A stretch of DNA of 64,000 nucleotides from Elusimicrobiaceae bacterium (GCA_045116875.1 JBGUMP010000018.1:6807-70806); one strand, 5' to 3'. Numbered from the stretch's first letter, positions 24,761 through 31,573 are shown. Notes: generated by a model from the sequence alone, not told the origin. Program-made: numbers and translations.

Positions 24761-26452
24761 ATGAAACGGTTACTGGCGTTACTAATTGGTATAGGGGTTG
24801 CATTACCGGCTTTAGCAGTACAAAAGCCGGGGCAGATGCCGCGTTTTATTTCCACCTGGGCAGCCGTGAGGGATGCGGGCCCTGGGGAACACCATACCAA
24901 AAAACGGGATACATACACGGTGTTATATAAGTTAACGTCCGGCCAGCCGATTTCCGTATCGCTGGATTTTGCTTCTGCCACCCCGGATAAAGAACGTGAA
25001 ATCTACCAAAAGGCCCTTGACCAAGCGTACAAGGATTGGTTCCGTAACGCGCAAGAATACATCAAACAAAGCGGACACAAAAAAGATTTTACCCAGGTAT
25101 TAGCACGCCTTAAAAAACCGAAGGTAAACTTTATTACGTCCCCTAAAGAGGCGGATTTAGAAGTACATGTAATGCCTTTTGAGGATGTGCAGAAACAATG
25201 CCTGTCGCAGGAAGGATTGTATTCCGTAGCAGGGTGTGTAAGTGTGCAAATGGAACAAGCCGGCAAAATGTTCCTGCCCGATTTGAATGGCTTATACCAG
25301 GCTTTAGTCAAGGAAAATGCGCGGAATGCCAAAGTTAAAAATGTAGCAGTGAAGATGTTGTACAAAAGCACTATTCCACATGAAGTTGGCCATACCTTAG
25401 GATTAGCGGACCAATACGAAGCGGCAATCCATCATACCAGTCACGACATTTACCGCTCCACCCACGTACGCAAAGGGATGATGAACAACAATCAATTTTC
25501 GTGTGATGATGCAGACGGGATTGTCAATTTGCTAGACATCCTCTACGGGGTGGAACCGGGGCGTAGCCAAGGGTGGCATAGCCTTTGTAAAGATTCGCCG
25601 GATGTGTACGTCAACGGGGTAGCCCTGGGGACCGGCCCGTACGTTATTAAAGCACCGGATCCCTTCACCTTTAAGGTAGATACGTATCAGCGCAACAAAT
25701 TGGTACGCACGCAGTCGTTCAAACTGGAGCAGCCCACTTCGCTAAATCCGCTTACTGCCGTGCCGGATACCACCGTACTGAAAGCGGATGAGTTGGGCCG
25801 CCCGGCCCGTACGCAGGGCCCGCAAGGGGAAATTATTTACTACCAGTATAGTTACGGGTTGCAGCTGCGTTTGATTACCAAAAATGATAAGGCGTTGCGT
25901 CTGGAAACCAAAGATGATAAATCGGTGGAGCAAGGGCTTTTTTCGTTCCTCACGATTCATAGGCATTTGCACGAGATGGTTTTGTCCCCCGGCAAAATAA
26001 CCCTTCTGATGCTCAGCAAGGCCGACAACGGAGAAATGACTGCTATGTATGAGGAAAGCATCAAAGAAGGCGAAAAATTGACGATTGAAATGACCTTTGC
26101 CCCCAACGGAACTGTCACCCAAAAACAGGTGACGGATAATCGCCCGGCGGTAACAGCCACACCTCGCCCCCAGGCCTCGCCTACTGCAAACCATAAAAGG
26201 GTGGATTCCAAGGGCCAGCAAGGCCGCTCCTCTAATGCCCATGGAAGAAAAGGTACAGCCAACGCAAAGGGCTCGTCCGGCAAGCGTTCTGCTCAAGGGC
26301 CGCAGAGCCAAACTGCTTCGTTAGGTGAGCGGGTAGCCCAGCGGGTTGACCAGCAAGCTACGCAGCAAGAAATTGCCGCCAAAACAAAATTATTGGAACA
26401 ATGGGCCCGCGCGCAAAATCGCGTAGGGAATGGTAGATGGTCCGTGCATTAA
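24761..26452 (+). CDS. Exported metzincin-like Zn metalloprotease 1
   Basis: Signal peptide; HEVGHTLGLADQY; Met-turn-like GMMN; CDDADGIVNL; GWHSLC. Confidence 0.8.
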   Translation: MKRLLALLIGIGVALPALAVQKPGQMPRFISTWAAVRDAGPGEHHTKKRDTYTVLYKLTSGQPISVSLDFASATPDKEREIYQKALDQAYKDWFRNAQEYIKQSGHKKDFTQVLARLKKPKVNFITSPKEADLEVHVMPFEDVQKQCLSQEGLYSVAGCVSVQMEQAGKMFLPDLNGLYQALVKENARNAKVKNVAVKMLYKSTIPHEVGHTLGLADQYEAAIHHTSHDIYRSTHVRKGMMNNNQFSCDDADGIVNLLDILYGVEPGRSQGWHSLCKDSPDVYVNGVALGTGPYVIKAPDPFTFKVDTYQRNKLVRTQSFKLEQPTSLNPLTAVPDTTVLKADELGRPARTQGPQGEIIYYQYSYGLQLRLITKNDKALRLETKDDKSVEQGLFSFLTIHRHLHEMVLSPGKITLLMLSKADNGEMTAMYEESIKEGEKLTIEMTFAPNGTVTQKQVTDNRPAVTATPRPQASPTANHKRVDSKGQQGRSSNAHGRKGTANAKGSSGKRSAQGPQSQTASLGERVAQRVDQQATQQEIAAKTKLLEQWARAQNRVGNGRWSVH

Positions 26453-26463
26453 CGGGGTGTTTT

Positions 26464-27801
26464 ATGAAACGCATTTTATTATTACTAGGTCTGTTTTTAT
26501 TAACCCCTGTTGCCTTAACCGCTAAGCCAACGGCGTTGATGAGCAATTATATCCATGATTCTAAACGATATATGACGTATAAGATTGTGCGCGGGCAGCC
26601 ACTTAACGTGCTGGTGCAGGTCCCGCGTTTCCCCGAACGCCAAAGCGACTATGAGGCATACGTGCTGCGGCTTTACGATAGGTGGTTTCACTCTGCTGCC
26701 GCTGTGATCCGTAGTTCCAACCGTCGCGAATTTGACGATCTCTTGCCCGTGTTATCGCAACCAGTAAAGATACGTTTTGTATCAAACCAAGAAAAATATG
26801 ACATTAAGTTTCGGTTTGTTTCGCCAAAAGAGGTGCGAGGTGAAATAGGTGGCCATTCCAACGGTGCTTTTAGTTTTAGCCCTGATGGCGCGGAAATTGT
26901 AGTTTCTGACAAGATTGATTGGCAGCGGGATACAATTTCCAGCGTACATTTGCATGAAGTGGGCCATTCCTTGGGCTTAGATGAACAATACTACTATGGA
27001 TGGGGAGAAGGACGTAATGCCAGCGTGGATGTGAACTATGCTTCCCCGGTACGTGAGAAAAGCGTAATGAATAATAATGCCCCCAAATATGTCAAAGGCA
27101 TTACAGAAGATGATGCCGACGGACTTGTGTTGGCGGTTGATTTTGCATTGGGTAATTATAACCGCGGTGGAGAAAAAGGATGGAAAAGTTTAGATCCAAA
27201 GTCCGAGTTGTATTACGTACATGGTAAAGTGGGTAACAGTCCCCATTCTTTTAGGCTGGATGGGAATGAAGTTCATCTCATCAAATATGATAAAAGAGGA
27301 AATGTCCTTAGCGCGAGGAAGCTGCCGTTCTCCTCACAAGGATTAAATGTATTGGACGAATTACAGGTGACACACATACTGCTGCGCGATCAGCAAGGGC
27401 GCCCTATTGTGGAGAAAGGCCCTCATGAGCAGACTATCTATACGTCGTACTTCTATGAAACAGTCCTTAAACTGGTTGAAAAAAACCATCAAGTACTGCG
27501 TTACGAAAAGACAACGTTTGATGACCGGGATGCCAAAAAGCCCCTCTTTAAAGAAGTAGTGAGTGCATCCCAGGAAGGTTTTGTTTATCTGCGGGGAGAT
27601 TTTTACACCCAGCAAGTGTCTTATATGGTGGATATGGGCATTGTGCACATGATAACTTGTACTTCTCATAAATGCAAAGATGACCGCCCGCGATTAAAAC
27701 ACGAAAGCCAAAAAACGCGATCAGTTGATTTGGATCAAAATGTCTTGTTTGAAAAACTAAAAGCTTGGCTCAAAGGCAAGGGAACGCTTAAAACCAAGTA
27801 G
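26464..27801 (+). CDS. Exported metzincin-like Zn metalloprotease 2
   Basis: Start at MKRILL (26464); HEVGHSLGLDEQY; SVMN; EDDADG; GWKSL. Confidence 0.8.
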   Translation: MKRILLLLGLFLLTPVALTAKPTALMSNYIHDSKRYMTYKIVRGQPLNVLVQVPRFPERQSDYEAYVLRLYDRWFHSAAAVIRSSNRREFDDLLPVLSQPVKIRFVSNQEKYDIKFRFVSPKEVRGEIGGHSNGAFSFSPDGAEIVVSDKIDWQRDTISSVHLHEVGHSLGLDEQYYYGWGEGRNASVDVNYASPVREKSVMNNNAPKYVKGITEDDADGLVLAVDFALGNYNRGGEKGWKSLDPKSELYYVHGKVGNSPHSFRLDGNEVHLIKYDKRGNVLSARKLPFSSQGLNVLDELQVTHILLRDQQGRPIVEKGPHEQTIYTSYFYETVLKLVEKNHQVLRYEKTTFDDRDAKKPLFKEVVSASQEGFVYLRGDFYTQQVSYMVDMGIVHMITCTSHKCKDDRPRLKHESQKTRSVDLDQNVLFEKLKAWLKGKGTLKTK

Positions 27802-30371: not shown

Positions 30372-30475
30372 CGTTGATCACGTTACACCTTGACAAAAGC
30401 TAAAATCCACGTATACTAACATATATATCCTTTTCGCAAAACCGGGGAGTCTTTTGCAAAAGGAGGGGGAATGTT

Positions 30476-31573
30476 ATGAAACGGATTTTATGCGTGAGTT
30501 TTTTGCTCTTATGTGGCACGCTAGGTGTGCGTGCCGTGCCGTGGGCAGAGATGGAAAACTCGGTGGCGGTTCGCGAAGAACGCAGACCGGAGGCGCGAAC
30601 TACGATGCACAGAGAGGAGCAAAAAGCCGATGCCATCAGAAGGGAAAACCGGGAAAAATTTCGCATTGCTCATCCGGAAAAAGTGACTATTTTGCCATTG
30701 ATTTTAAGCGGGCAAAGAATCAAAGTAAGTGTGTACCCGCCCAGCAGTACGGAAGAGGAAAAACATAGCGTGGCAGAAGAGTTGGTACGCAAAGCCTATA
30801 ATGCCTGGTTCCGAAATGCTGTAGAAAAGATCCAAGAAGCCGACCGCAGCAGGGAATTTGCGGATATACTTCCTATTTTAAGTAGGGGGGTGCCTATACA
30901 GTTCGTGGACTTTGTGGACAACCAGGAGGATGTGTGGGTGGCCATAGAGGATACCCTTGAAAAAGTGGAGAAAGCGTGCGGAGAAGATAGTGTGGGGTGT
31001 GAATCCCCCGGTACGGAAGAAAGCTCTATTAGTGTGACGGTGTTTGAATATGGCCGTTATAGTGATTTACTACATGAATTGGGCCATACTTTGGGGCTGG
31101 ATGAAGCATATGTTTCGAAAAAAGAATTTATGTCCCATACAAACCGTTCCGATAAACTAATCAACGATACGGTGATGAACACGCATGACACGCCGCTGAC
31201 AGCGGATGATGCCGATGGTTTAATTAATATAATTGACGCGTGGAGAATTAAAAAAACACAGACACAATACCCTGCGGATTGGTGCAAACACATTCCCTTC
31301 CGTGTTAAAAACGGGTGGGATAGTCTGCATAAGGAGAAAAATAGCCGGTCAGTGCAGCGTTATGCAATGGGGAACTCTGCATCCTTATTGCCTGATGTGC
31401 AAAAATGCCCCGATGAAACGCCTCTCACGCGCCCTCAAAAAAAGCAGGAAAAACGCCCTTCCTCATCGGTGCGGCCCCCGGCAAACGAGAGAGCTTCGAG
31501 CGTTACGTCCACTCAACAGGCCATTCGAACAGATATTAAAAAAACAGGAAAACGCCAGGTCCTCGGCAGATAA
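30476..31573 (+). CDS. Exported metzincin-like Zn metalloprotease 5
   Basis: Signal peptide; HELGHTLGLDEAY; TVMN; DDADGLINIID; GWDSL. Confidence 0.8.
   Translation: MKRILCVSFLLLCGTLGVRAVPWAEMENSVAVREERRPEARTTMHREEQKADAIRRENREKFRIAHPEKVTILPLILSGQRIKVSVYPPSSTEEEKHSVAEELVRKAYNAWFRNAVEKIQEADRSREFADILPILSRGVPIQFVDFVDNQEDVWVAIEDTLEKVEKACGEDSVGCESPGTEESSISVTVFEYGRYSDLLHELGHTLGLDEAYVSKKEFMSHTNRSDKLINDTVMNTHDTPLTADDADGLINIIDAWRIKKTQTQYPADWCKHIPFRVKNGWDSLHKEKNSRSVQRYAMGNSASLLPDVQKCPDETPLTRPQKKQEKRPSSSVRPPANERASSVTSTQQAIRTDIKKTGKRQVLGR

Follow-up and report, generated by a model that had tools for sequence, protein, structure and literature searches.

An unnamed family of predicted exported metzincins encoded in a tandem array between recG and rpoD of Elusimicrobiaceae

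Introduction

The published consensus for the metal site of metzincins is HExxHxxG/NxxH/D, with His as third zinc ligand and only rarely Asp, as in snapalysins, thuringilysins and igalysin (PMC12237041). A Tyr residue neighbours the third ligand in snapalysins, and the metzincin igalysin (family M64), the immunoglobulin A (IgA) protease of the gut commensal Thomasclavelia ramosa, carries Asp followed by x-Tyr (D550-E551-Y552) (PMC12237041). Among homologues of the mini-zincins (PF06262) the corresponding Asp is often replaced by Glu (PMC3890501). Here we describe five consecutive genes (g1 to g5) within a stretch of 64,000 nucleotides (nt), in the following called the window, from an Elusimicrobiaceae bacterium (GCA_045116875.1 JBGUMP010000018.1:6807-70806). 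All five encode metzincin-like proteins; g1, g3 and g4 match the consensus exactly with Asp, while g2 and g5 fall outside it with Glu at the third-ligand position. The best explanation, to which we assign a probability of roughly 75%, is that they belong to an unnamed metzincin family of the Elusimicrobiaceae, act as zinc endopeptidases after export by Sec, and form an array at a fixed site at which the gene content turns over.

Results

Five co-oriented genes share a zinc motif

Translation of the window and a listing of its open reading frames (ORFs) yielded five ORFs, co-oriented on the + strand between recG and rpoD. The genes and their zinc motifs are as follows (aa, amino acids).

g1: 24761-26452, + strand, 563 aa, Asp type, predicted exported metzincin
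g2: 26464-27801, + strand, 445 aa, Glu type, predicted exported metzincin
g3: 27869-28846, + strand, 325 aa, Asp type, short form
g4: 28863-30371, + strand, 502 aa, Asp type, long form
g5: 30476-31573, + strand, 365 aa, Glu type, short form
g1 zinc motif: 25379-25417, + strand, HEVGHTLGLADQY, comprising H207, E208, H211, G214, D217 and Y219
g2 zinc motif: 26953-26991, + strand, HEVGHSLGLDEQY, Glu at position 11
g3 zinc motif: 28529-28567, + strand, HELGHVFGLEDEY, Asp at position 11
g4 zinc motif: 29466-29504, + strand, HELGHTLGLADQY, Asp at position 11
g5 zinc motif: 31073-31111, + strand, HELGHTLGLDEAY, Glu at position 11

For g2 the ORF lister placed the start at 26437 (454 aa), while the identical protein called by NCBI has 445 aa; for g4 it selected a TTG start at 28701 (556 aa), while the signal peptide MKHALL begins at 28863. 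A GGAGG ribosome-binding site is located 8 nt upstream of g1.

The zinc motif common to the five proteins is HExGHxxGLx[D/E]xY. They further share an N-terminal [YF]xxWF motif (YKDWF, YDRWF, FDAWF, YGEWF and YNAWF in g1 to g5, respectively), a Met segment (GMMN, SVMN, SIML, GVMN, TVMN) and, in 5/5 proteins, DD[AV]DG and GWxSL. Pairwise identities range from 23 to 40%, the highest value being that of g4 versus g1, and every pair was found by BLASTP with E ≤ 2e-13; the five proteins appear to be old paralogues, not recent duplicates. A first-pass annotation, made from the sequence alone, had proposed five co-oriented genes between recG and rpoD with these motifs and lengths of 325 to 563 aa. Translation bears out all of this, with 445 aa for g2 and 502 aa for g4. 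In the 1.36-Mb, 90%-complete assembly the family profile detected only these five copies (E-values of 1.5e-71 to 1.6e-211), every one at the recG/rpoD locus.

The intergenic gaps from g1 to g5 measure 11, 67, 16 and 104 nt and thus leave no space for interspersed partner genes. Indeed, no inhibitor or immunity gene in the style of Listeria Mtz-Tim or of polymorphic toxins stands beside the protease genes in the window array, as had already been stated in the first-pass annotation, and the arrays of relatives likewise consist of family members placed back-to-back with no partner genes between them. Inside the 104-nt gap ahead of g5 a promoter-like element near consensus (TTGACA-16-TATACT) is present at 30390-30417 (+), from which g5 may be transcribed on its own. 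Overall, a scan of the locus for promoters and terminators performed no better than with shuffled sequence.

Conservation across the family

Conservation was evaluated in 91 diverse family members and is given in g1 numbering. The H, E, G and H residues of HExGH as well as W93 are invariant (91/91), and Met241 (90/91), Gly214 (89/91), Trp272 (88/91), Asp249 and Asp250 (87/91 each) and Tyr219 (85/91) are nearly so. Two Cys pairs, 147/159 and 248/276, covary perfectly, as disulfides would: both partners are present in 72 members, neither in 19, and a single one in none. The g2 protein has neither of these pairs and g5 is devoid of the second. The N-termini of g1 to g5 are hydrophobic and signal-peptide-like, which together with the covarying Cys pairs supports an extracytoplasmic location; the mature proteins are predicted to be mostly disulfide-stabilised.

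According to the mechanism that we propose, the catalytic zinc would be held by His207 and His211 of the active-site helix and by Asp217 beyond the turn at Gly214, and Glu208 would act as general base. In g2 and g5 the third zinc residue would be Glu. Tyr219, two residues past the third ligand, could serve as a 'tyrosine switch' as in snapalysin and igalysin, and the almost invariant Met241 would form the Met-turn beneath the metal site; the C-terminal helix, opening with CDDADG, comes next.

Two further conserved segments were observed. A Trp is found at the signal-peptide junction in 127/159 members (median residue 23), within the logo A-A-P-W-[G/A]-A-L-x-D-Y; the segment maps to 24821-24880 in g1, 28920-28940 in g4 and 30536-30550 in g5. 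The Pro ahead of this Trp would be awkward for signal peptidase I if cleavage took place at A|P. The segment is modelled confidently in g5 (predicted local distance difference test, pLDDT, 87-88), and VIA superposes residue 24 of the model on the first residue of mature astacin. Three readings are possible for it: a sorting signal, a short pro-segment, or an N-terminus that is buried in the mature protein. The second segment, also nearly invariant, is the acidic cluster C-D-D-A-D-G...D with which the C-terminal helix opens (g1 residues 248-259, window positions 25502-25537). It looks like a portion of a DxDxDG calcium loop, possibly a metal site with a structural role.

Structure models of an Asp-type and a Glu-type protein

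AlphaFold (AF2) models were made for g1 (Asp type) and g5 (Glu type) and compared with known structures by Foldseek and VIA. The g1 model has a mean pLDDT of 75, with most 10-residue blocks of the catalytic domain at 84-97; for g5 the mean pLDDT is 86.4 and the predicted template modelling score 0.81. In Foldseek, g1 matched matrix metalloproteinases (MMPs) and snapalysin with probabilities of 0.97-1.00, and g5 matched MMP catalytic domains, including MMP-7, with a probability of 1.00. VIA aligned g1 with EcxA (Z 9.5), MMP-9 (Z 9.4), astacin (Z 8.4), ADAM10 (Z 8.2), snapalysin (Z 7.7, 119/134 residues), serralysin (Z 7.6) and archaemetzincin (Z 7.3). For g5 the values were Z 9.4 for astacin (root mean square deviation, rmsd, 2.9 A over 144 residues), 8.1 for EcxA and 8.0 for MMP-9. 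Across the two models the matches, among them MMP-9/2/12 and ADAMs, span eight or more metzincin families over model residues 50-263. Both models share the same topology of active-site helix, turn, Met and C-terminal helix, with the helix placed after the Met in g1 as well as in g5. The catalytic domain is hence predicted to have a metzincin fold, and in these models no single known metzincin family stands out. The metzincin-like fold suggested by the first-pass annotation, for which it had named AlphaFold and Foldseek as checks, is borne out with Foldseek probabilities of 0.97-1.00 and Z-scores of 7.3-9.5.

The five proteins differ in their additional parts. In g1 the signal peptide is followed by the catalytic domain (about 50-290), a confidently modelled beta-rich domain (about 290-460), a disordered basic linker rich in Lys, Gly, Ser and Gln (467-518) and a C-terminal helix (521-556). 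An extra beta-rich domain and then an amphipathic terminal helix with a conserved Trp are carried by g1, g2 and g4; binding to substrate or to the cell surface is the probable function of these parts. In the short g3 protein the beta domain is missing, and the N-terminus is extended by a charged segment of about 60 aa. When the beta-rich domain was compared by VIA within the full-length g1 model, only generic antiparallel beta-meanders were retrieved (Z ≤ 7.8). As a candidate identity for this C-terminal domain the RHS/YD repeat was considered. PF05593 (RHS/YD repeat) had no match in the array proteins at E ≤ 1, and hhalign gave a probability of 0.5% for the family profile against an RHS-repeat lipoprotein of the window, so this identity is unsupported by Pfam or hhalign.

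Distribution

An exhaustive HMMER search against 1.84 billion representatives retrieved 551 clusters (counted at 50% identity) at E ≤ 1e-3, the tail of which comes without taxonomy; 202 of them reach E ≤ 1e-30. In a sample of 301 genomes of the phylum the family was detected in 78/87 other Elusimicrobiaceae genomes, with several copies per genome in most carriers. By genus the counts were 58/61, 17/19 and 3/3, and 0/1 for every one of four additional genera. It was found in 0/213 genomes of all other families, where non-detection in a sample is not proven absence. A profile search of contigs gave at least six Elusimicrobiaceae/Elusimicrobiales loci among the matches listed. The named kin are metagenome-assembled genomes (MAGs) of Elusimicrobiaceae, Elusimicrobium and Elusimicrobiales, and four of the titles mention sources such as rumen, roe deer and yak. 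A match in a Nannocystaceae MAG covered 56 residues of the motif only and was not counted as a family member. The pattern HE[ILV]GH[TS]LGL matched 599 stretches in a contig search, none of them a relative. These counts support a lineage-specific, expanded family confined to rumen and gut Elusimicrobiaceae. The first-pass annotation had inferred such an expansion and had proposed a profile count, and its view agrees with the result.

Turnover at the recG/rpoD locus

The order recG-[array]-rpoD-dnaG is syntenic in six relatives, with one to six family genes at the site. The flanking genes in the window and the copy numbers at the locus are listed below.

recG, conserved left flank: 22548-24644, - strand (Pfam; synteny in six relatives)
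rpoD, conserved right flank: 31654-33372, - strand (Pfam; synteny)
dnaG, beyond rpoD: 33380-35164 (Pfam)
Genomes G020, G125 and G243: 1 family gene each
Genome G009: 2 family genes
Genome G203: 4 family genes
Window genome: 5 family genes
Genome G003: 6 family genes

In genome G012 the order differs, and recG is followed by another copy, the g2 orthologue and a g1-like gene. G203 and G012 are the near species: the window shares 90-98% identity with them in recG, rpoD, dnaG and the MIP channel gene, whereas identity is 74-75% for the counterpart of g1 and about 40% for that of g5. In the nearest species, 75% for g1 stands against 90-97% for these flanking genes. Most array copies diverge far faster than the flanking genes. 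The ratio of non-synonymous to synonymous substitution rates (dN/dS, estimated by Nei-Gojobori) is 0.27-0.30 for g1, compared to 0.02-0.07 for the flanking genes.

A different picture was obtained for g2. Its G012 orthologue (L027:1438-2772) is 96.6% identical, with a dS of 0.062 and a dN/dS of 0.26, while recG, rpoD, dnaG and the MIP channel gene show dS values of 0.48-1.05 in the same comparison. The low dS of g2 against its flanks suggests that g2 alone was recently exchanged, by transfer or recombination; it seems to have moved between lineages as a single gene. For both g1 and g2 dN/dS is below 1, and g2 is under purifying selection. Since its ratio of 0.26 lies below neutrality, the Glu-type g2 is maintained by selection.

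At the fixed recG/rpoD site copies are gained, lost, replaced and exchanged, and this turnover would provide each species with a different set of extracellular proteases. Relatives hold further back-to-back arrays of 2-6 genes at other loci, which belong to a subfamily with the motif HExGH[FY][FY]GL (L017:5526-15009, L018:6131-12792, L022, L023, L025 and L026). On the examined stretches with these arrays neither recG nor rpoD nor dnaG was found.

Variation at the third-ligand position

Position 11 of the motif could be read in 158 members: 140 show Asp, 15 show Glu and 3 show Gly, and Tyr follows two residues on in 150/158. HExGH and this Tyr are intact in each of the 15 Glu-type members, and g2 and g5 keep the Met as well. 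In a FastTree tree calculated with the trait columns masked, at least 10 state changes are needed at this position. Nine separate clades contain the non-Asp members; one of them, Glu-only and well supported, has four 50%-identity representatives. The g5 clade is a mix of Glu and Gly, and the closest relatives of g2 beyond its own cluster have Asp.

The conserved rest of the site, the recurrence of Glu and the purifying selection on g2 favour functional Glu types. For alternation between the two acidic residues the Asp/Glu exchange in the PF06262 mini-zincins provides a precedent at the sequence level. We put forward, tentatively and at somewhat less than even odds, that Glu is a working zinc ligand. 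Then g2, g5 and about 10% of the family would be active enzymes with a metal site beyond the consensus, arisen repeatedly from Asp types and maybe tuning metal affinity, pH optimum or specificity, within a hot spot at which a host-facing set of proteases is reshuffled. A pseudo-enzyme reading nevertheless stays in play, given the Gly variants and the loss of disulfides.

Other features of the window

Two tandem M20-family peptidases with signal-peptide-like N-termini are encoded at 5947-7323 (-) and 7450-8799 (-). They lie 16 kb upstream of the array on the other strand, behind a tRNA-synthetase gene and others; the idea of the first-pass annotation that the array feeds these exported enzymes, there named PepT, is supported by nothing more than co-occurrence. 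A 285-aa, eukaryote-like repeat protein consisting almost entirely of ankyrin repeats is encoded at 40220-41077 (+; Ank_2, E 1.7e-65) of this host-associated bacterium. At 46252-47322 (+) a 356-aa protein with an RHS repeat is found (PF05593, E 9.6e-10), for which hhalign gives no sign of a relation to the C-terminal domain of the proteases. A 1408-aa fusion at 15074-19300 (+) combines BcrAD/BadFG-type ATPase domains with DUF2229, as in activases of coenzyme A enzymes.

Discussion

Exported zinc endopeptidases of a new metzincin family remain our preferred explanation for g1 to g5, and several observations weigh against it. Glu at the third-ligand position lies beyond the published metzincin consensus. 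The Z-scores of 7-9.5 are moderate and are not led by one metzincin family. The spacing from the third ligand to the Met is 24-37 residues versus 10 in snapalysin, and the loop between them is poorly modelled in g1 (pLDDT < 50 at residues 219-230). Export is predicted from the appearance of the N-termini and from the covarying Cys pairs, and the gene neighbourhood gives no pointer to a substrate. The proteins might serve the digestion of protein in the gut lumen, the cutting of particular host or competitor proteins, or both. Turnover, raised dN/dS and the host-associated habitat lean to specific cleavage of host or competitor proteins, though not decisively.

A rival reading, which we hold to be somewhat doubtful, regards the same enzymes as effectors directed at hosts or competitors, for example as cleavers of IgA, mucin or surface proteins or as toxin-like proteases, instead of general nutritional proteases; an arms race would then drive their diversification. 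The fast turnover of gene content at a fixed locus, a dN/dS 4-10 times that of the flanking genes and the recent exchange of g2 between lineages (dS 0.06 versus 0.5-1.0 in the flanks) speak for this reading, as do the host-associated kin from the rumen. Furthermore, the closest motif analogue from a gut commensal is the IgA-cleaving igalysin with its D-E-Y (PMC12237041). The toxin subunit EcxA is among the top structural matches, but its similarity does not exceed that of MMPs or astacin, and no B-subunit, secretion-system, immunity or inhibitor gene is located beside any copy (gaps of 11-104 nt). Exported M20 peptidases in small-genome Elusimicrobiaceae would rather fit feeding on peptides. 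That the proteins are hydrolases on a metzincin scaffold whose substrates are not ordinary polypeptides, but for instance cell-wall peptides or glycopeptides, is very unlikely. Foldseek with full-length g1 lists O-glycopeptidases of Akkermansia (Amuc_1438, E 4.8e-4, and OgpA), and the extra beta domain could bind glycans. However, the superpositions are poor (TM-scores of 0.17-0.25, rmsd 16 A), these enzymes are absent from the VIA top 50 of both the g1 and the g5 models, and no carbohydrate- or peptidoglycan-binding Pfam domain was found in the five proteins.

A further alternative concerns only the non-Asp members, namely that the Glu types g2 and g5 and the Gly-type relatives are pseudo-proteases with a binding, decoy or regulatory function and no catalytic zinc. 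Glu is outside the consensus HExxHxxG/NxxH/D (PMC12237041), the Gly in three members argues that a gene can persist without an acidic residue at this position, and both family disulfides are gone in g2 and one in g5. Against this stand the HExGH and Tyr residues kept by all 15 Glu types and the Met kept in g2 and g5, as well as the emergence or retention of Glu in several clades, including the deep four-member Glu-only clade. Purifying selection on g2 (dN/dS 0.26), the very confident metzincin fold of the g5 model and the frequent change from Asp to Glu at the same position in PF06262 mini-zincins (PMC3890501) point in the same direction. We consider this alternative unlikely.

Elusimicrobiaceae are common and barely studied members of rumen and gut communities, and their genomes are very small (1.1-1.9 Mb in the genus of the bacterium studied here). 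A fast-changing multi-copy family present in nearly every sampled species despite such small genomes is therefore likely to be central to feeding or host interaction. What stands out is the restriction to one bacterial family, the copy-number-variable array at a fixed locus and the recurrent Glu together with rare Gly. Current annotation is blind to these proteins, and a profile would label several hundred protein clusters. In addition, the natural Asp/Glu/Gly series on one scaffold constitutes a test set for the contribution of the third zinc ligand in metzincins. The practical value is moderate, since unnamed lineage-specific metzincin families are not rare.

Comparison with described metzincin families

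Pfam and NCBIfam searches with the five proteins returned no model at its cut-off, only weak matches centred on the motif; below threshold these comprised DUF4953, M10, reprolysin-like, M54, M64, M6, snapalysin and serralysin. PF00413 was weakly matched by 26/91 members, and no consistent assignment emerged among the 91. A literature search on metalloproteases and peptidases of Elusimicrobia and Elusimicrobium found no description of the array family, and every database name encountered for a member was 'hypothetical protein'. The first-pass annotation, which had not recognised a described family, was right in this respect. The ESM Atlas offered nothing beyond leads, namely unnamed Bacillota clusters (0.91) and clusters of matrixin-like proteins (0.88).

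In profile comparison with the PDB, a 5-sequence profile had snapalysin as first match (E 0.012), and the 91-sequence profile matched serralysins (2.6e-5 to 8e-5), snapalysin (3.4e-5) and myroilysin (3e-4) with the motif in register. Residues H207, E208, H211, G214, D217 and Y219 of g1 align to residues 83, 84, 87, 90, 93 and 95 of 1C7K_A; in snapalysin His83, His87 and Asp93 are the zinc ligands and Glu84 is the catalytic base. The Asp ligand assigned in the first-pass annotation is thus in the expected register, with D217/Y219 of g1 on Asp93/Tyr95 of this M7 enzyme, and its remark that Glu in g2 and g5 is atypical agrees with the consensus in PMC12237041.

Snapalysin (M7, the small neutral protease of Streptomyces; PDB 1C7K/1KUH/4HX3) shares with the array family an Asp as third zinc ligand and a Tyr two residues on, the HExxHxxGLxDxY of the array standing in the same register as HETGHVLGLPDHY. 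Both are secreted, here by prediction, and snapalysin is the joint-best sequence match in the PDB (E 3.4e-5). Nevertheless NF033628 reaches 11.4 bits versus a cut-off of 300, PF02031 is matched by 1/91 members (E 0.0046), and the catalytic domain has 132 aa versus about 240 aa in the array family, which belongs to another phylum. Unlike snapalysin, the array family has an N-terminal [YF]xxWF helix, two predicted disulfides, the DDxDG/GWxSL signature and optional C-terminal beta-rich and helical domains.

Serralysins and matrixins (M10, PF00413) provide the best sequence-profile matches (E 2.6e-5 to 8e-5), in which the aligned region extends from the strand ahead of the active-site helix to the S-x-M Met-turn, and the best Foldseek matches (probability 1.00). 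In M10, however, the third ligand is His instead of Asp/Glu, and the array family is devoid of a Tyr after the Met-turn, of RTX and hemopexin domains and of a cysteine-switch motif. PF00413 remains below its cut-off even for the best window protein (g2, 21.9 bits versus 24), as does the serralysin model NF035945 (≤ 19 bits versus 500).

Igalysin (M64) has Asp-x-Tyr and a long connecting segment ahead of the Met-turn in common with the array proteins (PMC12237041). The Bacteroides structures 3P1V/4DF9 are weak profile matches (VIA Z 6.0 with the g5 model). M64 differs by an extra residue before the Gly (HExxHxxxGxxD), which is found in none of the array proteins, by a structural Cys-rich zinc site and by quite unlike domain sets; PF09471 scores 8.9 bits versus a cut-off of 26. 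Thuringilysin/immune inhibitor A (M6; TIGR03296, PF05547) has the motif HExxHxxGxxD with an Asp ligand, and TIGR03296 matches weakly over the motif, but at 14.4-17.5 bits versus 110.8; M6 enzymes are also much larger, with other flanking domains. The mini-zincins (PF06262, Acel_2062) share HExxHxxGxxD, with Asp often Glu in homologues (PMC3890501). They differ in being without a Met-turn, in ending soon after the ligand and in that activity is not known for them, and the array proteins score 12-13 bits versus 22.4 with PF06262.

By these cut-offs the array proteins belong to none of the curated families, and we regard them as an unnamed, family-level variant within the well-known metzincin clan.

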